From a bacterium (GTDB lineage: Bacteria; Krumholzibacteriota; Krumholzibacteriia; JACNKJ01): a stretch of DNA of 64,000 nucleotides. Under the pieces are notes generated by a model. That model was given only the letters and a program-made list of their open reading frames with translations. It was not told the origin of the DNA and did no database searches. Shown one piece after another: positions 35,922-63,977 of this stretch (positions are counted from its first letter, which is position 1; every line of letters begins with the position of its first letter). Position numbers and translations under genes: made by a program. The stretch covers positions 98,453 through 162,452 of the forward strand of contig JAAEPZ010000591.1 in the NCBI GenBank assembly GCA_024231955.1, written 5' to 3'.

Positions 35922-38900
35922 ATGGGCCTGCGTGAGTCCAAGCAGGGGATGATAAAGATGAGTTCCGTCCAGGATAGCCAAGCCCAGGATCGTTACCAGA
36001 TCAAACACCAGATTCGGGTGGTCACCGCCACCAGCCTGTTCGATGGCCACGATGCCGCCATCAACATCATGCGGCGCATGATCCAGGCGGGGGGAGCCGA
36101 GGTTATCCACCTCGGGCACAATCGATCCGTGGCCGAGATCGTTGAGGCGGCCATCGAGGAGGATGCTCAGGCAATCGCCGTCTCCTCCTATCAGGGTGGG
36201 CACAACGAGTTCTTCAAGTACATGCGCGACATGCTGGTCGAGAGGGGCGCGGAGCATATCCGTATCTTCGGCGGCGGCGGCGGCGTGATCCGCCCCGACG
36301 AGATCAAGGATCTGGAGGGGTACGGCATCGAGCGGCTCTACGACCCCGAGCACGGCCGCAAGATGGGGCTGACCGGCATCATCGACGATCTGCTCGAACG
36401 GAGCGACTACCTCACCGTTCAGGTGCCCGGCGGCGGCAAGGGCGAGCGCAAGGGCGCGGCCCTCCCCACTGTCGCCAAGGTGAGTGTCGACGATCATGCC
36501 GCGGTTGCGCGTCTGATCACGCTGGCGGAGATGGGGGGCGACGCCTGGGATCTGGTGGCTGACAAGATCGGCACGCTGGCCAAGCGGAACAACGCACCGG
36601 TGATAGGCGTCACCGGCACCGGCGGCAGCGGCAAGAGCTCGCTGCTCGACGAACTGGTCCGCCGTTTCCGCTTCAGTAACCCCGACAAGAGGGTGGCGCT
36701 GCTCTCCGCCGATCCATCAAAACGACGCACCGGCGGCGCATTGCTGGGCGACCGGATCCGGATGAACGCCATCGAGGGCGAGCAGGTGTACATGCGCTCG
36801 CTGGCGACGCGTGACAGCCGCACCGAGTTGCCCGTGACCATCGAGTCGGCCATCGCGGTGACCCGGGCGGCGGGCTTCGACATGATCTTCGTCGAGACCA
36901 GCGGCATCGGGCAGGGGGATACCGAGGTGGTGGACATCTCGAACGTCTCGCTCTACGTGATGACCTCGGAGTTCGGCGCTCCGACCCAACTCGAAAAGAT
37001 CGACATGATCGACTACGCCGACCTGATCGCGATCAACAAGTACGAGCGCAAGGGGAGCGAGGATGCGCTGCGCGATGTGCGGCGGCAGATGCGCCGTTCG
37101 CACGAGGACTTCAGCGTCGAGTTGGAGGAGCTGCCGATCTACGGCACCATCGCGAGCAAGTTCAATGACGAGGGCGTCAACGGTCTCTACGCCGGATTGA
37201 TTGATGTCATCGCCGCCAAATGCGGCGTCGAATTCAAGTGCGACATTCCGGTCGGCCGGATCTCCCGCACGTCCAGCAGCAAGTCGATCATACCGTCCGA
37301 GCGCACCCGCTACCTGGGTGAGATCGCCGACGCCGTGCGCGGCTACAAGCATCGCGCCCACGAGCGGGCCGAGGTGGCGCGCAAGCTGCAGCATCTGCGC
37401 ACCGCGCAGGCCGAATTGGAGAGCGCGGGGGCCGGCTCGACCCATCTGGTCGACCGGATCGAGGCGCTGGAGCGGGAGTTGGGCGACGAGTCGCTGCAGC
37501 TGCTCGCCGGTTGGGACGACCTGCACGTCGCCTACCGGGGGGATACGTTCAGCTACGTCGTTCGCGGCAAGGAGTTCAAGGTCGATCTCACGACCGAGAC
37601 GCTGTCGGGCACCAGAATCCCGAAGGTGATCGTGCCGCAACTGCACGACCACGGCGACCGCCTCGAGTATCTGATGCTGGAGAATGTCCCCGGGTGCTTC
37701 CCCTACACCGCCGGGGTGTTCCCCTTCAAGCGGCAGGGTGAGGATCCCAAGCGGCAGTTCGCGGGCGAGGGCGGTCCGGTGAAAACCAATACCCGTTTCC
37801 ACTACCTCTGCCGCGCCGACGACGCCAAGCGGCTCTCGACCGCTTTTGATTCGGTGACGCTCTACGGGCAGGATCCGGACGAACGCCCGGACATCCACGG
37901 CAAGGTGGGGGATTCCGGCGTCTCGATCTGTTCGCTGGAGGACATCAAGAAACTCTACGCCGGGTTCGACCTGTGCGCGCCGAGCACATCGGTGTCTATG
38001 ACGGTCAATGGCCCCGCGCCGATGATGCTGGCCTTCTTCCTCAACTCGGCCATCGATCAGCAGGTGGAGTTCTTCAAGGAGAGAGAGGGGCGCGAGCCCG
38101 CAGCCGCCGAGTATGAGGAGATTCGAGTTCGCACTCTGAGCACGGTGCGCGGCACGGTGCAGGCCGATATCCTGAAAGAGGATCAGGCGCAGAATACCTG
38201 CATCTTCTCGACCGATTTTGCGCTGCGGATGATGGGTGACATCCAGGAGTACTTCATCGCAAACAATGTGAAGAACTACTACTCGGTATCGATCTCCGGC
38301 TACCACATCGCCGAAGCTGGGGCCAACCCGATCACCCAGACTGCGCTGACGCTGGCCAACGGCTTCACCTTCGTCGAATACTATCTTTCGCGTGGGCTCA
38401 AGATCGACGACTTCGCGCCGAGTCTGTCCTATTTCTTCTCCAACGGCATGGATGCGGAGTATACCGTGATCGGACGTGTGGCGCGGCGAATCTGGTCCAT
38501 CGCCATGCGCGATCTCTACAGCGGCAACGACCGCAGTCAGAAGCTGAAGTATCACATCCAGACCTCCGGCCGCTCGCTGCATGCTCAGGAGATGGACTTC
38601 AACGATATCCGCACCACGCTGCAGGCGCTGCTGGCGTTCTACGACAACTGCAATTCGCTGCACACCAACTCCTACGACGAGGCGATCACCACACCCACCG
38701 AGGAGTCGGTGCGGCGGGCGATGGCGATTCAGATGATCACGCTGAAGGAGTTCGGTTTGACGAAGAACGAGCATCCCTGGCAGGGGTCGTACATCGCCGA
38801 AGAGCTGACCGAACTGGTGGAGGAGGCGATCCTGAGCGAGTTCGAGCGGCTGAGCGAGCGGGGCGGCGTGCTGGGCGCGATGGAGACGCAGTATCAGCGC

Positions 38901-39251
38901 GGCAAGATCCAGGACGAGTCGATGGTGTACGAGCATCGCAAGCATACGGGCGAATTGCCGATCATCGGGGTGAACACCTACCTCAAGGAGGGGGACGATG
39001 ATCTCATCGCCGCCGACATCGAATTGAGGCGGGCCACTCCCGAGGAGAAGGCCGAGCAGATCGCCAACCTGCGCGCCATGCAGAAGCGCAACACCGAGAA
39101 GACCGAGGAGACCCTGGGCAAGTTGAAGAGGGTGGCGCTCGAAGGCGGCAACATCTTCGAGCAGATGATGGAGACCGCGCGCTACGCATCGCTGGCCGAG
39201 ATCTCCAACGCCCTCTACGAGGTGGGCGGGCAGTATCGCCGCAACATGTAG
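35922..39251 (+). CDS. icmF: Fused isobutyryl-CoA mutase (B12-binding domain + MeaB-like G-protein + mutase substrate domain)
   Basis: 1109 aa. B12 motif [14 protein letters not shown]-loop [19 protein letters not shown]. Long methylmalonyl-CoA-mutase-like catalytic domain. Exact start among several N-terminal Met is uncertain. Confidence 0.85.
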
Positions 39252-39587: not shown

Positions 39588-40748
39588 GTGAAACCGACAC
39601 AAACGCCAGCACAGCAGCCCACCGATGATCTTGTGGACCGGATACCGGCGGGGATATACCAGGCCGACGAGCAGGGCTTCGTTTCCTATTGCAATCCCCG
39701 AGCGGCCTTGATATTGGGCTACAATCACCCGCGTGAACTGATCGGAAAGAAACTCAAGAGCTTATATGTGGATCCCAGTGACCGTGACAAATTGCTCGGC
39801 ATCATGGAGGTCGCCAAAGAGAAGGGATCGGAGAATTTCCGCATCAGGATGAAGAAGCCGTCGGGCGATGTCGTCGTGATCAGCGTCAATTCTCAGTACA
39901 GAGACTCGGGTGGAGCGGTCGAGGGCACATTTACCGATGTCACTGAACTGGCCAATTATGAAAGTCTGTTCGAGGATCTGCCGGCCGGCGTCTACCAGCT
40001 TGATGATGAACTGAACATCATCAAGTGTAATCCCGGATTCGAAAAGGTGTTCGGATATGAACCGGGGACACTCACCGGAGAGCCCGCCTCCAAGCTCTAT
40101 CTGGATGTTAACGATATGTACAGATTGAACGATGAACTCAAGGGGCGACTGGGATCCGGGCAGCAGGAGATCAGATCCCGGGTGATCGAGATGAAAAAAG
40201 AGAATGGGGACAGTGTCTGGATCTCATTGACGACCCATCTCAGACTGGATGGTAACGGGCAGGTGGTCGGCAGAGAGGGGACAGTCATTGAGACCACGCT
40301 GGAGGAGGCCAAAAAGAGGAAACAGATCTGTGGACATTGCTACGTTGCCGTGCCGTATCGACAGGAATTTCATGCGATCCATGACAAGATACTCAAACCG
40401 CTGGCTGCACAACACAAGTATATGGCTCAGAAAGCCGATTCCAAGATGGTTTTCACGGAATCCATGCGGACTAAAATGTACGGCATGATCCGCAACGCCG
40501 ACTTTGTGATCGGGGATATGACCGGCGACAATCCCAATGTGATGTACGAACTGGGGCTGGCGCACGCATTCGGCAAACCGGTGATTATGATCTCTCAGGA
40601 TAATGAAATCCCGGTCAACGTCAGGGAATATGAATTCATACACTACCAGGATACTCTTGCTGGTCTGGACCTGTTCAAGAAGAACCTGTCCCGGGCTATA
40701 CTGCATGTACATGAAGAGTTGATGGCGCAGGAGGCGAAGCGGGAGTGA
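39588..40748 (+). CDS. Tandem-PAS protein fused to a nucleoside 2-deoxyribosyltransferase-like / TIR-like Rossmann domain
   Basis: 386 aa, GTG start with CAGGAG RBS. Two PAS blocks (IPAGIYQADEQGFVSYCNPRAALILGY..., LPAGVYQLDDELNIIKCNPGFEKVFGY...). C-terminal ADFVIGDMTGDNPNVMYELGLAHAFGKPVIMI matches the NDT-like DxxG...E.G.A.A.GKPV signature. Confidence 0.65.
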   Translation: MKPTQTPAQQPTDDLVDRIPAGIYQADEQGFVSYCNPRAALILGYNHPRELIGKKLKSLYVDPSDRDKLLGIMEVAKEKGSENFRIRMKKPSGDVVVISVNSQYRDSGGAVEGTFTDVTELANYESLFEDLPAGVYQLDDELNIIKCNPGFEKVFGYEPGTLTGEPASKLYLDVNDMYRLNDELKGRLGSGQQEIRSRVIEMKKENGDSVWISLTTHLRLDGNGQVVGREGTVIETTLEEAKKRKQICGHCYVAVPYRQEFHAIHDKILKPLAAQHKYMAQKADSKMVFTESMRTKMYGMIRNADFVIGDMTGDNPNVMYELGLAHAFGKPVIMISQDNEIPVNVREYEFIHYQDTLAGLDLFKKNLSRAILHVHEELMAQEAKRE

Positions 40749-40803
40749 ACCCGAAGGCTCATCCGTTAGGTGGATCGCAATCGCATTCAACGGGAGCCGT
40801 ATT

Positions 40804-41190
40804 TTGGTGAATTCGGATAATTCACCTGTTGCCTTGCGAGTGATCTCCCCCGAAAGGTTGGTCCGGGACATGCGGAAGATACTCGTCGAAACCGAGCGGC
40901 TGCTGATCAGACGTCCCGAAGAGGGGGGTCGCCGCTGCTATGAGCGGCTCTTCTGCGACCCGGTCATGATGCGCCATCTCGGAAGCGTCTGGCCCTCCGA
41001 GCAGGTTCAGGAGGCGCTCGCCGAGTGGCGCGAGGTCTGGGGCAGCGACAACCGCTGGTACGGTACCCTCCTGCTGAAGGACACGCTGGAGCCGATCGGC
41101 GCTGCCGGGATACGAAACTCAGGTCCTGTGGGAGATGACCTCGGAGCAAAGTCAGCGGGGGCAGAACCGCGTTGTGAGGTCATCAGATGA
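40804..41190 (+). pseudogene. Truncated GNAT (RimJ/RimL-like) acetyltransferase fragment
   Basis: N-terminal LVETERLLIRRPEE and following block match the N-terminal half of ribosomal-protein-alanine acetyltransferases. The ORF ends after about 128 aa, short of the acetyl-CoA binding motifs, and runs into a low-GC non-coding stretch. Confidence 0.4.
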
Positions 41191-41519
41191 GAATGGAGAG
41201 ATAGAGAACTCATCCCAGCGGTGAACTTGTGGACTGTCTAACCTGATCGGCAACACACCTCTTCTCGCTATCCAATTTCTACTCAGTTCCCGGTGCGCGA
41301 GGTCTTTATGGGCAAAGATCCTCGGCACATTTAACTGATAACGAATTTTGCTCGAACTCGAACGGCTATAGCGGCCTATAGAGCTACTGACACACGTAAC
41401 CAAATCCCATATTGGGCCCGATTTGAGAATCCACAATCATTGGAGCAGAATCAACTAGCCATACTGCGCATGAAAATCGTAGACATAGTAGATTCGCCTA
41501 TATGGATTGAGAGGTTCTT

Positions 41520-42068
41520 ATGTCCAGGAGAATGATTGCCTGTGCCGCTCTGGCCGCCATCGGCATCGCGTTCGGTTGTGTCTCCCTGCTCGTATATCTG
41601 TCCAATGGTCATCCCCGACTCATCGCCCGCAAACTCAAATTGGGCGCAATCATCCTGTCGCTGACGGCCATGCTCGGCACCGCCTGCACCACGCCATCCC
41701 GGGTCACATGCTACATGCCTGCACCGCCGGATAGAGTTGCCGTCGATCCGGATGCCTTCGTCGACAACGTGATCTGGCTCGTTCTGGCGGAGAGCAATGA
41801 GATCGCGGGGACGATTCTGGATCGCGACTCGAGCGAGTTCTCCTTTTGCTTGATCGATGCTGAGGTGTCGGTGATTCAGGAGGGGGAGCTTGCGGCGCAA
41901 GATGGAGCAATGGACGAAGCGGAGGAGGAGTTCACGATCGTTATCGATCCCGGTACGCCGGTGGGTGGTTATGCCCTCCGTTTCTACTCCGTCCCAATGG
42001 CTGAAATCGTCATTGGCAATTACATCGCGGAGTTCCCGGTCGAGATCCGTGAGACGTCCGGAAGATGA
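41520..42068 (+). CDS. Hypothetical membrane-anchored protein, translationally coupled to the downstream radical SAM gene
   Basis: 182 aa. Two N-terminal hydrophobic helices and an acidic C-terminal half. ATGA overlap with the rSAM gene start. Confidence 0.5.
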   Translation: MSRRMIACAALAAIGIAFGCVSLLVYLSNGHPRLIARKLKLGAIILSLTAMLGTACTTPSRVTCYMPAPPDRVAVDPDAFVDNVIWLVLAESNEIAGTILDRDSSEFSFCLIDAEVSVIQEGELAAQDGAMDEAEEEFTIVIDPGTPVGGYALRFYSVPMAEIVIGNYIAEFPVEIRETSGR

Positions 42069-43108
42069 GCGTCAAAACCCGGCTTCCGGCGATCACCCTG
42101 GAACTGACCGGCGCGTGCAATCTTGCCTGCAGCTATTGCTACAATCACTGGCGTGTACCGGGGCAGGAGCTCCCGGACGGTCGAACTCCCGACTACGGGC
42201 AGGTGAGACGCACGGTCAAAGCCCTGTATCGGCAGGTCGATGTGCGGCAGATCGCAATGACGGGTGGCGAGCCCTTTCTCTTCGAACGTTTGCCGGAGAT
42301 CGCCTTGACCTGCAGGCTCAAGGGCTCCGCCGTGGCGGTGATCAGCAACGGCAGCATCGCCGACAGAGGGCGTTACGACGAATTGATCCGCATCGGCATC
42401 GACCTCTTTGAGTTCCCGATACACTCCGCCACCTCAGCGATTCACGATTCCCTGACGAATACCCCCGGCTCCTGGAGCAAGGCCCGCGAATCCCTGGAAC
42501 AGGTGATCGAGCTGGGTGCGCGCGGGGTGGCTGTGATCGTCCTCACGCGGCGGAATGTCGTCGGGTTGGGGGACACACTTCGCCTGTGTCGCGAATTGGG
42601 CGTGGATTCAGTCATGCTCAATCGTTTCAACATCGGAGGACGCGGCATCGCCGAAGCGCACAGGCTGCAGCCGGATGCCGCGCAACTGCACCAGTCTCTC
42701 CGTGTGGCCGATACCGCCGTCACGGAGCTCGGCCTGAAGATCAGTTCGAATGTCTGCACTCCCCATTGCCTTGTCGATCCGCATGACTATCCCCGCCTGG
42801 GTTTTTCGAACTGCGAAGTCGATGTGCGGCAAAGACCGCTGACCCTGAACTGGCGGGGCGACCTGCGCTTCTGCAACCATTCGCCTGTGATCATGGGCAA
42901 TATCCACCGGCAATCCCTGAACGAGATATTCGCCTCCGATTACGCCACGCTCTGGCGGCAGGCTCGCCCGGTATTTTGCGCGGACTGTCACCGCTTCGAA
43001 CGCTGCGCCGGCGGTTGCCGCGCTGCCGCCGAGCAACTGGGGGGGACGCCGGCCGACCCGGATCCGGTTCTGGAGATGTCGGGTACGAAAGCACCAGGAT
43101 CGGCGTAA
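42065..43108 (+). CDS. Radical SAM enzyme with C-terminal SPASM/twitch domain (anSME/peptide-maturase family)
   Basis: 347 aa. CNLACSYC (Cx3Cx2C) near the N-terminus. C-terminal CTPHC...C...CADCHRFERCAGGC auxiliary-cluster motifs. Confidence 0.8.
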   Translation: MSVKTRLPAITLELTGACNLACSYCYNHWRVPGQELPDGRTPDYGQVRRTVKALYRQVDVRQIAMTGGEPFLFERLPEIALTCRLKGSAVAVISNGSIADRGRYDELIRIGIDLFEFPIHSATSAIHDSLTNTPGSWSKARESLEQVIELGARGVAVIVLTRRNVVGLGDTLRLCRELGVDSVMLNRFNIGGRGIAEAHRLQPDAAQLHQSLRVADTAVTELGLKISSNVCTPHCLVDPHDYPRLGFSNCEVDVRQRPLTLNWRGDLRFCNHSPVIMGNIHRQSLNEIFASDYATLWRQARPVFCADCHRFERCAGGCRAAAEQLGGTPADPDPVLEMSGTKAPGSA

Positions 43109-43424
43109 GAACGGGGTGGCATGATCATCATCGACTGTGGCATTGCGTTTGCCTGGCCCGAGTACCTTGTGGTTGAGCCTGATCCGTACTTCCCCCCGAT
43201 CGGGTTCAACTTTTGCCGTAAACTCCGTATCGATGAACGGTCATCAGGATGGATCGGACAGATCCTGCCCGGCGTGTGTTCTCGATTTTCTGTCGCTGGT
43301 TGAATCCGTGTTCGAGAAAGCGCTTCGGCAACAGATCGCCGCAAAATGTATCCTCTGAATGGACAACCGGGGAGCACTCCTCTATTGTCCGCTCAATGTT
43401 CGCCATGGTCTTTGACAAACCGGG

Positions 43425-44930
43425 ATGCCGCGCATGATGTCGAAATTTGAAGATATCGAGTATGCAGATCTGCCGACGCAGCCGCAGCCGGATATCGGGA
43501 CGGTTCTGGTCGCGGGGGCCACCGGCTATATCGGGGGACGACTGCTGCCCGCCCTGGTTATGAGGGGCTACAGAGTGCGCGCAATGGTCAGAGCCGGATC
43601 GCTCTCACCAGGAAGCCTGTCGTCTGAGGTGGAGGTCGTGGTGGCCGATGCTCTGGATGCCGAGCAGGTTTACGAGGCTCTGGAGGGTGTCCATACGGCC
43701 TATTATCTGATCCATTCAATGTTGTATGGACTCGACAAATTCGAAAACGTCGATATTCAGGCGGCCATCAATTTCCGTCGGGCAGCAGAGGCCAGGGGGG
43801 TGAAACGGATCATCTATCTCGGTGGGCTGGGTGATATCCGCACCTCTCTCCCTTCGCATCTCTGCAGCCGCAGGCAAGTCGGCAACCAATTCAGTGAGAG
43901 CAGCGTGCCGACGACAATCCTCCGTGCGGCGATAATAATCGGGTCGGGCAGTGCATCTTACGAAATGATCAACCACCTTGTACGGCGCTTGCCCATCCTC
44001 CTGACTCCGAAGTGGATCAAGACCCGCTGCCAGCCGATAGCGATAAGGGATGTTCTCAAATATCTGATCGGCGTTCTTGAGCATCCCGAGACAATCGGCC
44101 GAACGTTCGATATCGGCGGCGATGATGTCCTGACCTATAGGGAGATCCTGGCGACACATTCCGCTCTGCTAGGCAGAAAACAGCTGCTCATCCGCTCGCC
44201 TGCGGTACCCATAGGTTTCTACTCATACATTGCCAGCTTGTTGACACCGGTTCCGGCCTCCATCTCCAGATGCTTGATGGACAGTATGACCCATGATGTC
44301 GTCTGCCAGGAGCGGGACATCGTGAAGCTGATCCCCTTCCGTCGTCTCGCCTACAAGGAGGCGCTGGTGCTGGCGATCTCACGGGTGGAGCAGGATGCCG
44401 TCCGCACCCGCTGGTCGGACAATTACCCGCCGGATCATGAACTGGCTATCAAACTGCATGAACTGGAGTCGGATCCGAACTACCGAAGTTCCCATTCGCT
44501 TGTATCGCGCAAATCACCGGCGGCGCTCTTCCGATCCGTCATCAAGATCGGAGGCAGAGAGGGGTGGTTCCACAGCAATGCTCTCTGGCGCATCCGGGGC
44601 GCATTCGATCGAATGTTGCTGGGTGTCGGCACTGCGCGCGGGCGGCGGAGCGAATCGACTCTGCGCAGGAACGATGTGATAGATTTCTGGCGCGTCGAAA
44701 CGATTGAGGAGAACAGCCTGTTGCTGCTTCGGGCCGAGATGAGGCTACCCGGGCTAGCGTGGTTGGAGTTTCGGATCGATCCCGCGGGGGAGGGGGAGAA
44801 TCGGCTGACGGTCACGGCCTACTACCAGTCACGCGGACTTTGGGGGCGCATTTACTGGTATATCTTCATGCCGTTTCACCAATTCATCTTCCAGGATCTC
44901 ATCATGGAGATTGAGAAGCGCAGTTGCTGA
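43425..44930 (+). CDS. NAD(P)H-binding NmrA/SDR-like protein with C-terminal DUF2867-like domain
   Basis: 501 aa. Rossmann motif VLVAGATGYIGGRL near the N-terminus. The long C-terminal extension is the kind that accompanies NmrA-like domains. Confidence 0.7.
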   Translation: MPRMMSKFEDIEYADLPTQPQPDIGTVLVAGATGYIGGRLLPALVMRGYRVRAMVRAGSLSPGSLSSEVEVVVADALDAEQVYEALEGVHTAYYLIHSMLYGLDKFENVDIQAAINFRRAAEARGVKRIIYLGGLGDIRTSLPSHLCSRRQVGNQFSESSVPTTILRAAIIIGSGSASYEMINHLVRRLPILLTPKWIKTRCQPIAIRDVLKYLIGVLEHPETIGRTFDIGGDDVLTYREILATHSALLGRKQLLIRSPAVPIGFYSYIASLLTPVPASISRCLMDSMTHDVVCQERDIVKLIPFRRLAYKEALVLAISRVEQDAVRTRWSDNYPPDHELAIKLHELESDPNYRSSHSLVSRKSPAALFRSVIKIGGREGWFHSNALWRIRGAFDRMLLGVGTARGRRSESTLRRNDVIDFWRVETIEENSLLLLRAEMRLPGLAWLEFRIDPAGEGENRLTVTAYYQSRGLWGRIYWYIFMPFHQFIFQDLIMEIEKRSC

Positions 44931-45090: not shown

Positions 45091-46701
45091 TCAGTACATC
45101 GCCTTGATGGCGCTCCAACTCTTCGTCTCTGTACTGGTCTCGTTGCAGTTGGTGCTCCGTGCTCCGATGAGCAATCCGCAGGTTGAGTTGGTCTGGGCGC
45201 AGGGGGAATCGCTCTGTAGATAGACGTTGCCGTCTACGGCGTTCGTGCCGCAGAACTGCGGATCGGATGAGAAGTTGTTGCTTATGGTCGCCTGATCCTC
45301 GATTCCGCCCGCCCAGTTTCCGCCGCTGTTGTTCCAGATATCCGAACACGTGAATGTGATCTGGGAATCGCCGTCCTGGTAAACAGCGCCGTTTTGCCAG
45401 GTATACGCCACGATACAGCACACTAGGTTGAGCGATGCCGTGTGGTAGGTGCAGATCGATCCTCCGTCCTGCGCCGCGGTGTTGTAGGTGAAGGTGCAAT
45501 TCGCCAGAGTAGCCGTCGAGGTCCACTCGCTGTAGAAACCGCCGCCCCAGCCCGCTACGTTGTTGTGGAAGACGCAATTCTCGAACCTCGGATTCTGGTT
45601 GCTCCAGTTCGCCACCGCTCCCCCCTCGAAGGGGCAGTTGTTCCGCAGAAAGAGGCAACCGGTGACATCCGCATCGGCATCCACGTCGATGCCGAGTCCC
45701 GCGCCGCCTATCCAATCGATCCCCGTGGGTGTGAGGTTGTCGCGGAACTCGCAATTGGTGATGGTCGTGGTGCCGGTGCCGTCGCAGTAAACGCCGCCGC
45801 CGTAGTTGGAGATGTTGTTCAGGAAGTCGACACCGCTGAGAGTGGGGGAGGAGCTGTCCCAGATGTACACGCCGCCACCCAGTCCGTACTCGCCGAGCTG
45901 CGCCTCGTTGGCCGAGAACGTGCCCCCCGTAACGTTGGGGGAGGCGCCGTTGAGGCAGTACATCCCGCCGCCGAAACGGGCGATGTTCTGCCCGAAATTG
46001 CAGTTCGTGATATTTGGGTTCGATCCGTCGCAGACAAGTCCGCCGCCGGAACTGCCGGTGGTGTTGCCCGTGAAGGTCACATTGGTCAGTGCGGAGAGGC
46101 AGTCTTTGAAGACCAGCCCGCCGCCGTCCGTGACCGCGGAGTTGCCCGTGAACGTACACAGGTCGAAGCTCACCTCGCAGGCGTCTATATAGCAGCCGCC
46201 CCCCTGACCCTGATCGTCCGCCAGTTCCGACGTCGCCGAGTTGTTCGTGAAGATGCAACCTGTGAAATTGACGGAGCTGGTGGGCATCGTATAGACGGCG
46301 CCCCCTTTGTTGAAGGCCGAGTTGTCTTCGAAATGGCAGTTGGTGACCTGGAGGTTCCCGTCGACGAACAGGGCGCCGCCGAACGAGGTGTCGCCCCCGA
46401 TCAGGTGCAGGTTGTCCAGGTATCCCGAGCTGCCGGACTCATCGAAGATGATGGCGCGGCCTAGCCCCCGGGCATCGATCGTCACGTTGTCCGTGCCGCC
46501 CGGTGCGCCATTGAGGTGAACGCCCGGCGGCAGGGCCAGATTGTATTCGTTGTAGGTTCCCGAGGCGAGCAGAACGGTGTCGCCGTAGCTGGCTGCGGCC
46601 AGCCCCGCCGCCGTCGTCGGCTGTTCTGAGGGGACATGGATCGTGGTTGCGCAGGCGGTGGTGGCCAGCAGCATCAGACTGACGAGAATTCCTGTCTTCA
46701 T
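45091..46701 (-). CDS. Secreted right-handed parallel beta-helix repeat protein (paralog A)
   Basis: Start at ATG 46701 (MKTGILVSLMLLATTACA signal) with GGGAGG RBS. Numerous G-rich beta-helix repeats (GGG.Y / N.F..N). C-terminal tail CGLLIGARSTNCNETSTETKSWSAIKAMY is shared with the paralog. Confidence 0.7.
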   Translation of the reverse strand: MKTGILVSLMLLATTACATTIHVPSEQPTTAAGLAAASYGDTVLLASGTYNEYNLALPPGVHLNGAPGGTDNVTIDARGLGRAIIFDESGSSGYLDNLHLIGGDTSFGGALFVDGNLQVTNCHFEDNSAFNKGGAVYTMPTSSVNFTGCIFTNNSATSELADDQGQGGGCYIDACEVSFDLCTFTGNSAVTDGGGLVFKDCLSALTNVTFTGNTTGSSGGGLVCDGSNPNITNCNFGQNIARFGGGMYCLNGASPNVTGGTFSANEAQLGEYGLGGGVYIWDSSSPTLSGVDFLNNISNYGGGVYCDGTGTTTITNCEFRDNLTPTGIDWIGGAGLGIDVDADADVTGCLFLRNNCPFEGGAVANWSNQNPRFENCVFHNNVAGWGGGFYSEWTSTATLANCTFTYNTAAQDGGSICTYHTASLNLVCCIVAYTWQNGAVYQDGDSQITFTCSDIWNNSGGNWAGGIEDQATISNNFSSDPQFCGTNAVDGNVYLQSDSPCAQTNSTCGLLIGARSTNCNETSTETKSWSAIKAMY

Positions 46702-46858
46702 CTCGACTTCCTCCCGGTGGGTGTATATCACAAATGTAGCATGTTTGGCTTGTGCAGGGGAAGGGGGGGAGTCTGTAACCACAGTTTATCTGGGATATCG
46801 ATAAAGAAAGAGAGGGTGTCCGAGCCCCCCTCTCTCAATGCGTGATATCGAATTCGGA

Positions 46859-48550
46859 TCAGTACATCGCCTTGACCGCACTCCAGCTTGTCGCCTCGGT
46901 GCTGGTCTCATTACAATTGATGCCCAATGCGCCGACTATCTGACTGCATCCGGCCACAGCCGCCGTGCAGGGCGAGTCGCTCTGCAAATAGAAATTGGTC
47001 GTGCCGGCAACGCCGCAGAACTGGGGGTTCGCGGAGAAGTTGTCGTCGGTTGTCGCCTGTGATTCGATTCCGTCGACCCAATCGCCGCCCGCATTGTTCC
47101 AGAGGTCGCAGCAGACCAGATTGATCGTCGAATCCGATTCCCGATGGACCGCGCTGCCGGCTCCGCTGTCGCAGATGATGCTCCGATTCAGGTCGACGGC
47201 GGCCCCGGTCCAGACGCTGATGCCGGCGCCGTCGGCGGCGTCCGTCACCTCGTTGCGCACCATCGTGCAACTGGTGAAGACTGCGGTGGAGTTGTTCTCA
47301 CCGTAATACGCCCCACCCCATCTCCCCGTGTTGTCATGGAAAATGCAGCTGGTGAATTCGGGGGTGCCGGTGCTCCAGTTGCCGATCGCTCCACCCATAT
47401 AGGTGGTGGAGTTGCTCTTGAAGGTGCAGGCGGTCGCCGTTAAATGTGCCGTACCCATGATGCAGGCGGCGCCGCCGCCCTGCGCTGTCTCGGAGCTTGC
47501 CGACTGGTTGCTTTCGAAACGGCAGTTGTCGAAGTGCGGTGTGCTCCCTGCGTTGCTGCAGACGGCGCCGCCCCAGACTGCCTGATTGGTGATGAAACGG
47601 ACATCCTCGACCGTAGCGGAGGCCGTATCCTCCAGATAGAGTCCACCTCCGTAGCCGTAGCTGCCCGCAGCGGCCGTGTTGCTCGACCAGGTGCCGCCGG
47701 TGATCGTCGGGGCGCTGCTGCCCCCGCCACTGTGTTCAACGGACATCGCCCCGCCCCAGTCGGCCGTGTTGAGCGCAAAGCCGCAATCGGTGATGGTCGG
47801 GCTGGAGTTGTAGCACATCAACCCGCCGCCGCCGTCGTTGGCGGCGTTGCCTGTGAAGTTGGTATGGTCCAATGTGGAGACCACCGCATCCAGAAGATAG
47901 ACTCCGCCGCCGCTGTAGACCGCATTATTGTCCGAGAATGTACAGAGTGACAGACCGAGGTTGACGGCCTCGGCATAGATGCCGCCGCCGTTGGTGTTCG
48001 TGGTGTTGCCGGTGAATGAGCAGCCATTGAAAACGGGGGAACCACCCGTTGCGATATAAACCCCGCCACCGGACCAGCCATTGTTCTCCGTGAACTCGCA
48101 GCCGGTGAAGGTCGGGTCGGCCGACGAGTCAAGAGCCAACCCGCCGCCGTGAGTCGACGCCTGATTGCCGATGAGGACACACAGCGAGACCTCGATGGGG
48201 GAGTTGGTCAGGTACATGCCCCCCCCTTCTGAGGTGGAGCCGCCGGTCAGAGTCAGGCCGAGGATACTTGTGGAACCGGCCAGGTCGCTGCCATGGATGC
48301 ACCTGCCTTGACCGTTGGCGTCGATGGTTACATCCTGTGCGTCACCGGTGGCGCTCCGGAGGCAAACGCCCGACTTCATCTCCAGATCGTGTTCGGTGTA
48401 ATTGCCGGTGGAGATGCTGACCGTATCGCCACTGACGGCGACTGTCAGCGCCGCCGCGATTGTCGGTTGCTCATCCGGCACATTGATCGTGGCTGCGCTG
48501 CCGACGGAGGCCAGCAGAAGTACGAGACCGCAGAATATCATACTCTTCAT
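46859..48550 (-). CDS. Secreted right-handed parallel beta-helix repeat protein (paralog B)
   Basis: 563 aa. Signal MKSMIFCGLVLLLASVGSA, AAGGAAGG RBS. Same repeat architecture and C-terminal CSQIVGALGINCNETSTEATSWSAVKAMY tail. Confidence 0.7.
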   Translation of the reverse strand: MKSMIFCGLVLLLASVGSAATINVPDEQPTIAAALTVAVSGDTVSISTGNYTEHDLEMKSGVCLRSATGDAQDVTIDANGQGRCIHGSDLAGSTSILGLTLTGGSTSEGGGMYLTNSPIEVSLCVLIGNQASTHGGGLALDSSADPTFTGCEFTENNGWSGGGVYIATGGSPVFNGCSFTGNTTNTNGGGIYAEAVNLGLSLCTFSDNNAVYSGGGVYLLDAVVSTLDHTNFTGNAANDGGGGLMCYNSSPTITDCGFALNTADWGGAMSVEHSGGGSSAPTITGGTWSSNTAAAGSYGYGGGLYLEDTASATVEDVRFITNQAVWGGAVCSNAGSTPHFDNCRFESNQSASSETAQGGGAACIMGTAHLTATACTFKSNSTTYMGGAIGNWSTGTPEFTSCIFHDNTGRWGGAYYGENNSTAVFTSCTMVRNEVTDAADGAGISVWTGAAVDLNRSIICDSGAGSAVHRESDSTINLVCCDLWNNAGGDWVDGIESQATTDDNFSANPQFCGVAGTTNFYLQSDSPCTAAVAGCSQIVGALGINCNETSTEATSWSAVKAMY

Positions 48551-60704: not shown

Positions 60705-63700
60705 CTACTTGAGAAGAGTCAGTTTGGTTGTGTCGTTCCAGTTACCTGCATCGATCCGGAGCGTGTAGATGCCGGAGGAGAGACCGGTTCCACTCTGGTC
60801 GCGACCGTTCCATGACCAGGTGTGCTCCCCGGCGGGCCGGCTGTCCAGCTTGCGGGAGAACACCTGACGACCGTTAGCCGCGAAAATGCGGATCAGCACG
60901 GAATTCTCACGGGGGAGCGAGTAGGTGATGTTGGTCGTCGGATTGAACGGATTGGGCCAGGCGCCACCCAGGGCGAAACTGCGGGGCAGTTCGTCCCCTA
61001 CGGATACCATGATCTGACCGGTACCGAAGACTTCATCGGAATAGCCGCTGCCCAATTGGTCCGCATTCCAGGCGGTGACCTTGTAGTAGTAGACCGTTGT
61101 CTCATCGGGGACCGAATCGTCGTAGTCGGTGTTGTTGATACCGGCGATCAGCGCCAGACGGTTGGCGATCGTCGGCTCGAAATCCTCGACGGTATCCCGA
61201 TAGACGGCGTACCCCGCGGCCCCGGTGACCAGATCCCAGTCCAGATGGATCCCGTAATCTCTATCCCTGAGAGAGGCATTCACGGTCACGCCCTGCGGCC
61301 GCCACGGACGTTGGATGTCGGCATCCGGCCCGCCGTAGGCCCCGATGTCGCTACGGCCGCCATCGACATCAAGAATCGTCGGATCCCCTTTGTCGAGAGC
61401 GGGGGAGTCGATCAGCAGGTGGAAATCAGCCGCCGCCTGGTCCCTGTAGAGGGGGTCGACATGTGTATCTCCCTCAATGGAGGTGAAGCCCTGATAGTCC
61501 GAATCGCTGGCGGGATTGTTGAAGAAGTTGTTGTAGGCGGCCGTCGGCAGGGTCGGGCCGAGGGCGAAAATCGTGGGCGACGCCAGATTGTTGGTGAAGT
61601 GACAATTCCGGATATCGACACTGGTATTGGACAGAGCGAGAGCGCTGCCGAGGATGGTGTTCTGAATGCCGTCGACCGTGTTGTTGACAAACTCGCCGGT
61701 CGATTCGGTCGCATACAGGACCGAGCCCTGGATGCCGCTGATATCCCCTTCGAATACGCAGCTCTTCACGGAGAACGTGCTGCCGCCGGCGTTATGGATT
61801 GAGCCGCCGAAATGGATGTCCGGGTCGCCATTACCTCGACTGACGCCATTGAGTAGCACCAGATTGCCCTGATTCATGATAGCGCCGCCGGAGACGGAGG
61901 CGCTGTTGTTGTCGAACAGGCAGGATTCGAGATCAAAAGTCAACCCGGCCCGAATCATGACGGCGCCACCCATATTGACTGCGGTGTTGCCAGTGAAATT
62001 GCCGCCGTCGATCCGGACAGTGCACTCGGTGCCGGTCATCGCACCGCCCTCGCCGATCGTCGTCAGATCGTCTCTGGCGGAGTTGGACGTAAAGCTGCAA
62101 TTCTGCAGAACGATGTCGGAATCGTGTACCGCCAACCCGCCGCCGTAATAGGCCGAGTTGTTCTCGAAATCGCAGTTGACCAGTGTCAGGTCGACGCCAA
62201 CGATGAACAGACCGCCGCCGTGGGAATTGTCATCGTCGCTGATATCCGCATTGGCGAATGTGAGGTTGGTCAGCGTGGGGGAACCGGCGCGGATCAACAT
62301 GTTGCCGCCATAGCGCCCCTGATCGGGATAGTAGCCGACCTGACCGCCCCCCTGCTCGATCCGGAACCCGTCGATGATCGTCGTGGCGTCGATCACCGGA
62401 TTAATCAAGATGAATACGCAGTTGATGCCGTTGCCCTGCAGGGTGGAGCGATTGGTGGCGGGTGTGCGATTGTCGTAGGTGGCGTCCCAGCCGCCGAGCA
62501 GCGACAGGTTCTTGTCAAGTGAGAGTACGTCACCAGAGCCGGATGCGGAGCCCTGCATGGCGACGGTATCGCCTTCGACGGCGAAGTCCAGGGCCTCCTG
62601 CAGTTCATCGAATTCATCGGGATAGGAGAAGAAGCTGCCGCCGCCCAGAGCCAGGAAGGCGTTGATCCGTCCGGCACCGAGGAGATTGCTGTAGCCCGGA
62701 TTGATATCCGAGATGTCATCACAGGTGTCGTAAAGCCTCTGGGTAACCATCGCGGCGTTGCTCTGACTGCGTACGCCATTTGCCAGGTGATGATAGATGC
62801 TGGCGACAAGACCGGCGGTGAGGGGTGCCGAGAACGAGGTGCCCTGGGTGGAGGTGTAGCCATCGATGGCCGTGGTGTAGACCGCGGTGCCAGGGGCGGA
62901 GACATCCACCCAGGTGCCGTAACTGGAGAAATCCGATTTGATGTCGGAGGCATCCGTGGAGGCGACATCAATGCAGCGGTTTGTCGTCGCCAGGTAGGAG
63001 GCAACGCTGTCGTTGTCGTTGCCGGCGGAGTTGGTGATGATCATGCCGGCGCTCCAGGCCGAATTGACGGCGGAGCCCAGAGCGGGCGTATAGCTGCTGC
63101 CGTAGCTCAGATTGGCCACGTGCGCACCCTTGACTCTGGCGTAGTTGAAGCCGGAGGCCATATAACTGGAGTAGGAGACGCCGGTCATCTGACCGTCATC
63201 CTCCACCGCCCAACCGATCCGGACTGGGAGAACGCGAGTGTTCCAACCGATTGAGGAGATGCCGATGCCGTTGTCGGTAATGGCGCCGACGAACCCGGCG
63301 CAACAGGTGCCGTGGCCCTCGAAATCGTCGGGGTCGTTATCCTGGTTGCGATAGTCCTCACCACCGTAGGGGCCGGGCGTGACATGGACGAAATCCCAGC
63401 CGCGCCAGTCATCGGTATAGCCGTTGGAATCATCGTCGGCACCGGGAGTCCCGTTGTATTCGGTCCAGTCCACATAGAGGTTGCCGTTGAGGTAGGGGGC
63501 CGGTCCGGCCAGGTCCGGATGATCCAGATCGACACCGGTATCGAGAATGGCGACCACAATCGTGGAGTCCGACTGGGAATGTCCCCAAGCCCCCTTGGCT
63601 TTGAGCGAGCCGGTGTTTCCGGTCTTCAGGTAGTATTGGCTGTCAAAAGTGGGGTCGTTCGAGTTGACGATCTGCACGGGGTTCCTGTCCAGTTTGCAGA

Positions 63701-63977
63701 GAATCACAGGCCAGGCCGTGAGGATCTCAGGTAGCGTCATCAGATCGAGGCAGGCGGCTTTGATGTCTGTATCTACTTCAATTTCAGCTACATAAAACTG
63801 GTCGCGGAAATCTGAGAATTGACGTTTATTCGCCGGCAGCTCCGCGAAGAACATCGGAGTGAGTGACCTTGTGCCCACCTTGTCCAGCAATTGATCGACC
63901 ATCCCGGCGCCGCTCCGGCCCCGTTCCAGGATCGTTGCAGGTGAGACCGCCGATGGTGCGAACTGGATTTCAATCAT
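60705..63977 (-). CDS. Large subtilisin-like S8 serine peptidase with beta-helix and FN3-like modules and a C-terminal T9SS (Por) sorting domain; 5' end may lie beyond the window
   Basis: Catalytic triad blocks ILDTGVDLDHPDL (Asp), HGTCCAGFVGA (His), GTSFSAPLTAGLVAS (Ser). C-terminal roughly 80 aa (GGAWPNPFNPTTNITYSLPRENS...GIYTLRIDAGN...KLTLLK) is the T9SS type-A CTD. No signal peptide at the track start. Confidence 0.8.
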   Translation of the reverse strand: MIEIQFAPSAVSPATILERGRSGAGMVDQLLDKVGTRSLTPMFFAELPANKRQFSDFRDQFYVAEIEVDTDIKAACLDLMTLPEILTAWPVILCKLDRNPVQIVNSNDPTFDSQYYLKTGNTGSLKAKGAWGHSQSDSTIVVAILDTGVDLDHPDLAGPAPYLNGNLYVDWTEYNGTPGADDDSNGYTDDWRGWDFVHVTPGPYGGEDYRNQDNDPDDFEGHGTCCAGFVGAITDNGIGISSIGWNTRVLPVRIGWAVEDDGQMTGVSYSSYMASGFNYARVKGAHVANLSYGSSYTPALGSAVNSAWSAGMIITNSAGNDNDSVASYLATTNRCIDVASTDASDIKSDFSSYGTWVDVSAPGTAVYTTAIDGYTSTQGTSFSAPLTAGLVASIYHHLANGVRSQSNAAMVTQRLYDTCDDISDINPGYSNLLGAGRINAFLALGGGSFFSYPDEFDELQEALDFAVEGDTVAMQGSASGSGDVLSLDKNLSLLGGWDATYDNRTPATNRSTLQGNGINCVFILINPVIDATTIIDGFRIEQGGGQVGYYPDQGRYGGNMLIRAGSPTLTNLTFANADISDDDNSHGGGLFIVGVDLTLVNCDFENNSAYYGGGLAVHDSDIVLQNCSFTSNSARDDLTTIGEGGAMTGTECTVRIDGGNFTGNTAVNMGGAVMIRAGLTFDLESCLFDNNSASVSGGAIMNQGNLVLLNGVSRGNGDPDIHFGGSIHNAGGSTFSVKSCVFEGDISGIQGSVLYATESTGEFVNNTVDGIQNTILGSALALSNTSVDIRNCHFTNNLASPTIFALGPTLPTAAYNNFFNNPASDSDYQGFTSIEGDTHVDPLYRDQAAADFHLLIDSPALDKGDPTILDVDGGRSDIGAYGGPDADIQRPWRPQGVTVNASLRDRDYGIHLDWDLVTGAAGYAVYRDTVEDFEPTIANRLALIAGINNTDYDDSVPDETTVYYYKVTAWNADQLGSGYSDEVFGTGQIMVSVGDELPRSFALGGAWPNPFNPTTNITYSLPRENSVLIRIFAANGRQVFSRKLDSRPAGEHTWSWNGRDQSGTGLSSGIYTLRIDAGNWNDTTKLTLLK

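Follow-up and report, generated by a model that had tools for sequence, protein, structure and literature searches.

In this study, we examined a gene cassette of a bacterium of the Krumholzibacteriota, centred on a radical S-adenosylmethionine (SAM)/SPASM enzyme of 347 amino acids (aa), within a stretch of 64,000 nucleotides (the window, to which all coordinates refer). The enzyme gene overlaps an upstream open reading frame (ORF) for a 182-aa protein and is followed by a short ORF of 60 aa. A preliminary description of this DNA had placed all three ORFs exactly and had suggested an uncharacterised peptide or protein-modification system. In line with that suggestion, we found an orphan maturase cassette, to which the upstream protein belongs. 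The explanation that accounts best for the locus, and that we consider probable, is a two-gene operon in which a substrate gene is followed by its maturase gene. The upstream protein carries an invariant Cys-Tyr (CY) dipeptide, and this motif is the sole element that tracks the enzyme across phyla. The features of the cassette are as follows, with GC3 standing for the GC content at third codon positions.

41423-41451 and 41507-41536: two weak sigma-70-like matches, which are matches to the consensus only and say nothing on function
41509-41514 (+): Shine-Dalgarno-like GAGAGG, read from the sequence, 5 nt 5' of the ATG of the 182-aa gene
41520-42068 (+): putative substrate gene, an ORF of 182 aa with GC3 0.70 and no Pfam or NCBIfam match
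41526-41678 (+): N-terminal helical hairpin, from the AlphaFold2 helices (aa 3-27 and 32-53) and from conservation
41673-41687 (+): lipobox-like L-G-T-A-C ending in Cys56, putative site of signal peptidase II cleavage and lipidation
41703-41729 (+): V-T-C-Y-M-P-A-P-P motif (aa 62-70), with the invariant Cys64-Tyr65 at 41709-41714; proposed modification site
41733-42050 (+): C-terminal beta-sandwich (aa 72-177) of Ig-like or macroglobulin-like kind, from AlphaFold2 strands; serves as this subfamily's variable "cargo"
42065-42068 (+): ATGA overlap of substrate stop and enzyme start, read from the sequence, suggesting translational coupling
42065-43108 (+): gene of the 347-aa radical SAM/SPASM enzyme (Pfam Radical_SAM and SPASM), with the TAA stop at 43106-43108
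42116-42139 (+): CX3CX2C (C18, C22, C25) for the SAM-binding [4Fe-4S] cluster, nearly invariant among 30 homologues
42767-43018 (+): SPASM region with seven invariant cysteines (C235, C250, C270, C305, C308, C314, C318), predicted ligands of two auxiliary Fe-S clusters
43121-43303 (+): 60-aa ORF (MIIIDCGIAFAWPEYLVVEPDPYFPPIGF...), starting 12 nt past the enzyme's TAA, within the 316-nt spacer before an NmrA/DUF2867 gene at 43425

Gene arrangement

The two main genes overlap as had been described, with the enzyme's ATG at 42065 running into the upstream TGA (42066-42068). An identical 4-nt overlap is found in five related loci (L001, L002, L163, L166 and L167; loci of our survey are labelled with L and a number). 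More broadly, the upstream ORF ends beyond the estimated enzyme start in 30 of the 43 loci whose upstream ORF bears a CY, where gap sizes are approximate because the enzyme start was estimated from a tblastn alignment. The pair recurs in related loci beyond what chance would give, and the pairing spans several bacterial phyla.

The radical SAM/SPASM enzyme

By its sequence, the 347-aa protein is a genuine radical SAM/SPASM enzyme. Both hallmarks named in the preliminary description, the radical SAM motif and a C-terminal SPASM Cys cluster, are present and are accompanied by Pfam matches above the cut-offs: PF04055 at 72 bits (cut-off 29.5), together with C18-x3-C22-x2-C25, and PF13186 at 33.2 bits (cut-off 21.5) over residues 255-309. 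When 30 homologues (43-50% identity) are aligned, both the GGE motif (G67-G68-E69) and the SPASM pattern C250-x14-G265-x4-C270 and C305-x2-C308-x5-C314-x3-C318 plus C235 prove invariant; the eighth, final Cys found in some SPASM enzymes is missing from the window enzyme. Homologues number more than 1,200, the best 120 listed being 44-50% identical to the window protein; Bacteroidota such as Dysgonomonas, Prevotellaceae and Tannerellaceae contribute many of them.

The enzyme fits no curated radical SAM subfamily of NCBIfam: its 58 matches are weak and none reaches a curated equivalog cut-off. The top scores are those of GeoRSP (86.2 bits, cut-off 400) and PqqE (TIGR02109, 85.1 bits, cut-off 381), while NirJ, HxsC4, MftC, AhbD, StsB, SbtM, TIGR04133 and AlbA all score far under their cut-offs. 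The preliminary description had also left room for an anaerobic sulfatase-maturating enzyme (anSME). No such classification emerged, as anSME models are not among the best 25 of the 58 matches, and hence score below 43 bits, and as anSME structures in the PDB align with the radical SAM core alone (35 bits, query residues 13-94). Among solved structures compared by sequence, PqqE (6c8v) is the only one that aligns over the full length with SPASM included (E = 6e-12 for the single sequence and 2e-17 when the family profile is used), and SkfB, the top PDB profile match at 69.5 bits, covers the core domain only. Judged from these comparisons and the gene neighbourhood, the enzyme is not of the anSME, PqqE, MftC or QhpD type with a known partner nearby. 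Pfam detects no N-terminal PqqD-like domain, the recognition element (RRE) of peptides that are made on the ribosome and modified after translation (RiPPs), and there is no room for one because CX3CX2C begins at residue 18. A profile search of all ORFs revealed no second copy of enzyme or substrate in the window.

Architecture of the upstream protein

AlphaFold2 modelled the 182-aa protein with a mean pLDDT (predicted local distance difference test score) of 93.7 from a 112-sequence alignment; a 4-sequence alignment yielded pLDDT 47 and was unusable. From the N-terminus, the order of elements is a helical hairpin, a lipobox-like Cys, a CY linker and a beta-sandwich. Helix 1 (aa 3-27) is strongly hydrophobic and is followed by a tight turn and the basic stretch S-N-G-H-P-R-L-I-A-R-K-L-K, in which G30 is nearly invariant and K38 invariant. 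The second half of helix 2 (aa 32-53), with the invariant G42, resembles the h-region of a signal peptide. Thus arranged, a basic n-region (R33-K40) and hydrophobic helix 2 lead into L-G-T-A-C56, and an extra hydrophobic helix precedes what looks like the signal peptide itself. C56 is conserved in at least 90% of the 112 sequences, and a relaxed lipobox-like Cys lies 3-13 residues ahead of the CY in 114 of 152 representatives (75%); lipidation of Cys56 is accordingly a prediction from sequence pattern. The CY linker was modelled with lower confidence (pLDDT 69-78).

The beta-sandwich is eight-stranded in the model. Foldseek against the PDB returned generic beta-sandwich matches only (TapA, complement MG domains, NPC2 and RbmA, with target-normalised TM-scores of about 0.5), which are uninformative on function. 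Under the positive-inside rule, the basic loop is expected in the cytoplasm, and the beta-sandwich would then be extracytoplasmic, like the TonB_C and CarboxypepD_reg cargos of other partners described below. The two N-terminal helices that had been read earlier are borne out by the model; the "acidic tail" is borne out only in part, the acidic stretch lying within the folded beta-sandwich rather than in a disordered end. Neither the hairpin nor the CY motif is covered by any Pfam or NCBIfam model.

Linkage of the Cys-Tyr motif to the enzyme

To examine the pairing of motif and enzyme, we surveyed loci that the enzyme alignment had picked out of genome and metagenome collections. A CY dipeptide in the abutting upstream same-strand ORF was present at 43 of 50 family loci, as compared to 4 of 52 control loci drawn from other radical SAM/SPASM families (Fisher p = 1.4e-16). 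CY-bearing ORFs (CY-ORFs) were also found elsewhere, immediately downstream of the enzyme in L011 (three of them) and L020 and in another frame in L111 and L112. Looked up in the reverse direction, the partner homologue P0124 led to an overlapping Radical_SAM gene.

Word-indexed homologue searches with the upstream protein gave 2 and then 4 matches, and the family became visible through synteny and an exhaustive profile search. Across 1.84 billion cluster representatives this search identified 643 proteins at E <=1e-3 and 383 at E <=1e-10, the 643 being clusters at 50% identity of the beta-sandwich partner family. All 152 representatives inspected contain the CY, at a median position of 63, with the logo V-T-C-Y-[D/A/E]-P-[A/V]-P-P-N. 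In the 112-sequence alignment (mean column identity 30%) only K38, G42, C64 and Y65 are invariant, with F18, C56, D128, E136, G149 and Y151 nearly so. Among 16 synteny-derived partners of 20-35% identity, G42, C64 and Y65 are the only invariant residues besides Met1. Most members of the partner family have just two cysteines. The closest relatives (L001, L166, L167 and L168) each encode one or two partner ORFs of 176-188 aa and 34-39% identity to the window protein; these stop where the enzyme gene begins or 4-11 nt into it.

Diversity of the partner proteins

The partners fall into three classes. Full-length profile matches make up the first, the subfamily of the window protein with hairpin, CY and beta-sandwich. 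Partners of the second class match only the N-terminal 60-70 profile positions and continue into a C-terminal TonB_C domain or into CarboxypepD_reg plus TonB_C; those of L083, L090, L005 and L163 have only 2-4 CY repeats after the N-terminal module. Members of the third class, from Planctomycetota, Myxococcota and Anaerolineae, match at profile positions 59-68 only, the motif itself, and are otherwise unrelated; some of them lack a hydrophobic N-terminus (L031, L033, L103). Taken together, the three classes indicate that the CY motif is the one element travelling with the enzyme. Apart from cargo domains of the TonB_C type, the partners match no NCBIfam model at E <=1.

A single enzyme gene is accompanied by 1-5 paralogous partners, three in L002, four in L164 and several in L006, and the partners are between 67 and 436 aa long. 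Three to five paralogous CY genes form arrays at 2863-5004 of L002, 2658-4980 of L164, 2266-6029 of L006 and 7047-9206 of L011; in L011 the array is downstream of the enzyme, not upstream. In about a dozen annotated neighbourhoods, no gene for an RRE/PqqD protein, a protease or a transporter recurs, and a conserved third gene of the protease, exporter or RRE kind was rejected on this basis.

Several of these properties recall a RiPP system: substrate candidate and enzyme are adjacent, the N-terminal module is conserved while the C-terminal part varies, and some partners are short CY repeats (L083, L090). Nevertheless, because the window partner is a folded protein of 182 aa and no protease or exporter is conserved, the system is better described as protein maturation than as a RiPP.

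The downstream ORF

The preliminary description had suggested that the 60-aa ORF could be a precursor peptide. If so, the upstream protein would be an accessory membrane protein, as it had also been read. The position of the ORF just past the enzyme stop, a G-rich stretch directly before its ATG and the presence of Cys and of Pro-rich sequence speak for this idea. Its codon composition, however, is flat (GC 0.54/0.48/0.59 by codon position), whereas the genes of the window show a clear contrast, with GC3 of 0.66-0.87. It has no Pfam or NCBIfam match, and tblastn in about 170 related loci found no homologue, the best matches (E >=0.03) being at chance level and inside other genes. It is overlapped by ORFs of equal length in other reading frames and on the opposite strand. 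The nearest relatives carry unrelated genes behind the enzyme, on either strand: L001 a 213-aa gene on the minus strand, L166 and L167 genes of 300 aa or more, and L168 a minus-strand gene. The ORF is therefore not distinguishable from chance; it is probably not a gene and stands outside the system. We rejected it as the precursor on its GC3, its lack of a family and its lack of a homologue in those loci, and regard a role as substrate as hardly credible. From the proposed three-gene arrangement, relatives keep the upstream gene and the enzyme and do not keep this ORF.

Proposed function and alternative explanations

In contrast to its earlier reading as an accessory membrane protein, we find the upstream protein to be the best substrate candidate, since it carries the invariant CY. 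From this genomic context we infer that it is probably the substrate of the enzyme and is modified at Cys64-Tyr65. The number of paralogues per enzyme, the wide range of partner lengths and the tandem CY repeats of the short partners are traits expected of substrates. The pre-protein, as we picture it, would present a hydrophobic helix and basic loop, a signal-peptide-like helix running to Cys56, the Pro-rich Thr-Cys64-Tyr65 linker and the beta-sandwich. By means of a 5'-deoxyadenosyl radical derived from SAM, together with two auxiliary Fe-S clusters, the cytoplasmic enzyme would modify the CY motif, with abstraction of a hydrogen atom at or beside Cys64/Tyr65 while the pre-protein is still in the cytoplasm. 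Because the enzyme has no RRE domain, the extension ahead of the signal peptide (helix 1 and basic loop) is probably a leader or docking element that would replace leader/RRE recognition, and perhaps it also holds the protein back. Export would follow modification, and then probably cleavage and acylation at Cys56, which would leave the modified residue eight positions from a lipidated N-terminus.

As for the chemistry, any specific proposal is of low confidence. We rank highest a Cys64-centred cross-link or thioether, for which Tyr65 is a possible partner, followed by a formylglycine-type oxidation of the Cys64 C-beta and then by something else; this ranking follows from the adjacent Tyr being the only acceptor conserved and from most members having two cysteines. 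Its closest characterised relatives make a C-C bond to a Tyr ring, in the case of PqqE, and a Cys thioether, in the case of SkfB. By analogy, these chemistries are compatible with the involvement of either residue and do not decide between them. Going further, we advance only tentatively the proposal of a widespread, undescribed modification system, in which an RRE-less enzyme would install, for example, a Cys-Tyr cross-link in the membrane-proximal linker of lipoprotein-like and TonB_C proteins, with the pre-signal extension serving in recognition or hold-back and so letting the cytoplasmic chemistry come before export.

Several observations weigh against a substrate role of this kind. The evidence for it is of one type, genomic context, and about 9 of 58 in-family enzyme loci (about 15%) have no adjacent CY-ORF. 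No such ORF lies within about 2.5 kb at L004, L013, L035, L094, L098, L105, L024, L028 and L032, whose enzymes are 30-46% identical; their substrates may be encoded elsewhere or be different. The very hydrophobic helix 1 suggests co-translational targeting to the membrane, in which case a cytoplasmic enzyme would have only a short time for access to residues 64-65. Tyr65 is the only conserved acceptor residue, and as no distant acceptor is conserved, a classical ring of the sactionine or ranthionine type is not supported. Finally, the lipobox is relaxed, with Gly at position -3 in the window protein. As an observation in its own right, the loci without a CY-ORF include a rumen Bacteroidales group with the cluster motif C-N-L-K-C-R-F-C-Y-N-H-Y.

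If the upstream protein were not the substrate, it could be an accessory membrane scaffold, chaperone or anchor that recruits the enzyme in a PqqD-like manner, with the true substrate being encoded elsewhere or being a small molecule. Its conserved hairpin with invariant K38 and G42 does resemble an interaction module, the enzymes without an adjacent CY-ORF fit such a role, and precedent exists in the LPL family, whose small proteins, always directly upstream of SPASM enzymes, were read as auxiliary components (PMC8939145). An accessory factor would, however, be unlikely to occur as one to five tandem paralogues of such varied length with interchangeable C-terminal domains. Partners from Anaerolineae, Planctomycetota and Myxococcota lack the hairpin yet keep the CY, and the tandem CY repeats of short partners resemble core peptides; we thus consider an accessory role unlikely. 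More remote still is a non-protein substrate, as for NirJ/AhbD or cofactor enzymes, with the CY adjacency having no enzymatic meaning. NirJ, AhbD and AhbC are among the weak NCBIfam matches (77, 64 and 49 bits), but these scores are far under cut-offs of 500-650 and mostly reflect coverage of the core domain. Moreover, tetrapyrrole and cofactor genes are absent nearby (Pfam, 21.5-64 kb), and the linkage of CY to the enzyme across phyla would be left unexplained, which makes this account very improbable.

A further alternative shares the substrate and differs on chemistry only. Here the enzyme would be an anSME-like analogue that recognises T-C-Y-x-P and converts Cys64 to C-alpha-formylglycine or to a residue derived from a thioaldehyde. 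The anSME logic fits, in that the enzyme is RRE-less, its target is one Cys within a short motif that contains Pro, and the protein modified is full-length and bound for export, and the Cys with its neighbouring Tyr is invariant while a distant acceptor is conserved nowhere. Against it stand the core-only alignment of anSME structures and the absence of anSME from the best 25 NCBIfam matches, as well as seven conserved SPASM cysteines in the window enzyme compared with eight ligands in anSME. The window motif has no Arg at +4, and its Pro is at +3, not +2; nor do we know of a role for an aldehyde in such a linker. An oxidation of this kind is improbable in our view, and a Cys64-centred cross-link in the upstream protein is the chemistry we would favour.

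Relation to known systems

Compared with characterised enzymes, PqqE is closest in sequence, and anSMEs with their sulfatases are closest in working logic; the window enzyme is a member of neither group. PqqE modifies a Tyr-containing peptide, PqqA, from its own operon. The likeness to PqqE consists in the full-length sequence alignment with its solved structure and in its place among the two best NCBIfam matches, but the window enzyme stays far from the PqqE cut-off, pqqB, pqqC, pqqD and an RRE partner are absent nearby, and a PqqE substrate is a peptide of about 25 aa with Glu-x3-Tyr, whereas the window partner is an exported 182-aa protein with an invariant Cys-Tyr. The anSMEs are RRE-less radical SAM/SPASM enzymes whose target, in the cytoplasm and before export, is a full-length protein; they modify one of its Cys residues, which lies in a short motif with Pro. 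Beyond the core-only alignment, they differ in their motif, C/S-x-P/A-x-R as opposed to T-C-Y-x-P, and no sulfatase gene was found across the 42 kb scanned. A single S-T-P-S-R match in the window is a chance occurrence inside a citrate-lyase beta gene.

Other radical SAM/SPASM families are more distant. MftC (TIGR03962) matches at 65.6 bits against a cut-off of 265 and over residues 10-210 only, no mft genes are nearby, and its substrate ends in Val-Tyr, while the CY of the window protein is internal. The sactipeptide and ranthipeptide maturases SkfB, AlbA, StsB and CteB are radical SAM/SPASM or Twitch enzymes that act on Cys of an adjacent precursor. Most of the window enzyme's length is covered by the models of StsB and AlbA, yet with 58 bits against 625 and 51 against 850 it lies outside both. 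These maturases carry an N-terminal RRE, whereas the window enzyme has no PqqD-like Pfam match, and their substrates are short leader-core peptides with conserved acceptors, unlike the partners of this enzyme family, which are 67-436 aa long and in which an adjacent Tyr is the only one. QhpD, also of the radical SAM/SPASM kind, serves the maturation of quinohemoprotein amine dehydrogenase by introducing Cys thioethers into QhpC, a subunit later exported to the periplasm. No qhp genes are nearby, no QhpD model is among the best 25 NCBIfam matches, and the acceptors in QhpC are distant Asp/Glu residues, whereas the window partner conserves Cys-Tyr alone. A different kind of likeness is found with TIGR04133 ("rSAM_w_lipo") and TIGR04303 (GeoRSP), uncharacterised orphan radical SAM/SPASM families defined by genomic context, which align over nearly the whole window enzyme (residues 6-317 and 13-334); with 55.3 bits of 425 and 86.2 of 400, respectively, it is a member of neither. 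We found no description of the Cys-Tyr partner family in the full-text literature, the coverage of which is incomplete, so that an earlier description is possible.

Genomic surroundings

The earlier statement that no sulfatase, pqq, mft or qhp gene is nearby agrees with our Pfam scan of all plausible genes in the 21.5-64 kb part of the window, which found none. The genes there belong to central metabolism and the envelope and include citrate lyase, aconitase, a malic enzyme/PTA fusion, succinate dehydrogenase, a deacetylase and EF-P. Conservation in relatives does not extend to the NmrA/DUF2867 gene downstream of the cassette. A regulatory RNA in the flanks of the cassette was considered and rejected, as the Rfam search came out empty, both at gathering thresholds for the entire window and at E <=1 for 40700-43500.

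Some neighbouring genes are of interest in their own right. Immediately upstream of the cassette, 39588-40748 (+) encodes a 386-aa protein in which two PAS domains are joined to a nucleoside 2-deoxyribosyltransferase-like domain at the C-terminus (PF05014, 30.3 bits, cut-off 28.8), an unusual sensor-effector fusion. A 128-aa ORF at 40804-41190 (+) matches positions 1-77 of 138 of the GNAT Acetyltransf_3 profile under the gathering score and is probably a truncated or decaying acetyltransferase gene. The 1109-aa ORF at 35922-39251 (+; GC3 0.87) reads like a fusion of a B12-dependent acyl-CoA mutase and its G-protein chaperone (IcmF-like). On the minus strand, 45091-46782 and 46859-48550 encode tandem 563-aa paralogues with Chlamydia-PMP/parallel beta-helix repeats, both of which share the tail ...NCNETSTE(T/A)(K/T)SWSA(I/V)KAMY. 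An unrelated protein beside the L001 enzyme gene ends in ...ETSFGLVKSLY, and these tails may represent a lineage-specific C-terminal sorting signal. Further along, 60705-63977 (-) encodes a subtilase (Peptidase_S8) of 1090 aa that has an FlgD Ig-like domain at its C-terminus; a FlgD_ig domain is also found on a neighbour gene in L001.

Conclusion

Radical SAM/SPASM enzymes have repeatedly been a source of new peptide chemistry. To our knowledge, nearly all of those characterised act either on short leader-core peptides, by way of an RRE, or on sulfatases. Against this background the cassette is unusual, being a compact, two-gene, RRE-less system whose apparent target is a whole exported protein, marked by an invariant two-residue motif beside a lipoprotein-type signal peptide and carrying interchangeable cargo domains, which in Bacteroidota include TonB C-terminal domains. 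The family is large, occurs in several phyla and is covered by neither a Pfam nor an NCBIfam model. It is likely that the upstream proteins form a large, multi-phylum and apparently undescribed family of exported proteins modified by a radical SAM enzyme. If the substrate assignment is true, they would represent a new class of modified envelope proteins, new Cys-Tyr chemistry would probably be involved, and the extension ahead of the signal peptide would coordinate cytoplasmic modification with export, an unusual arrangement.

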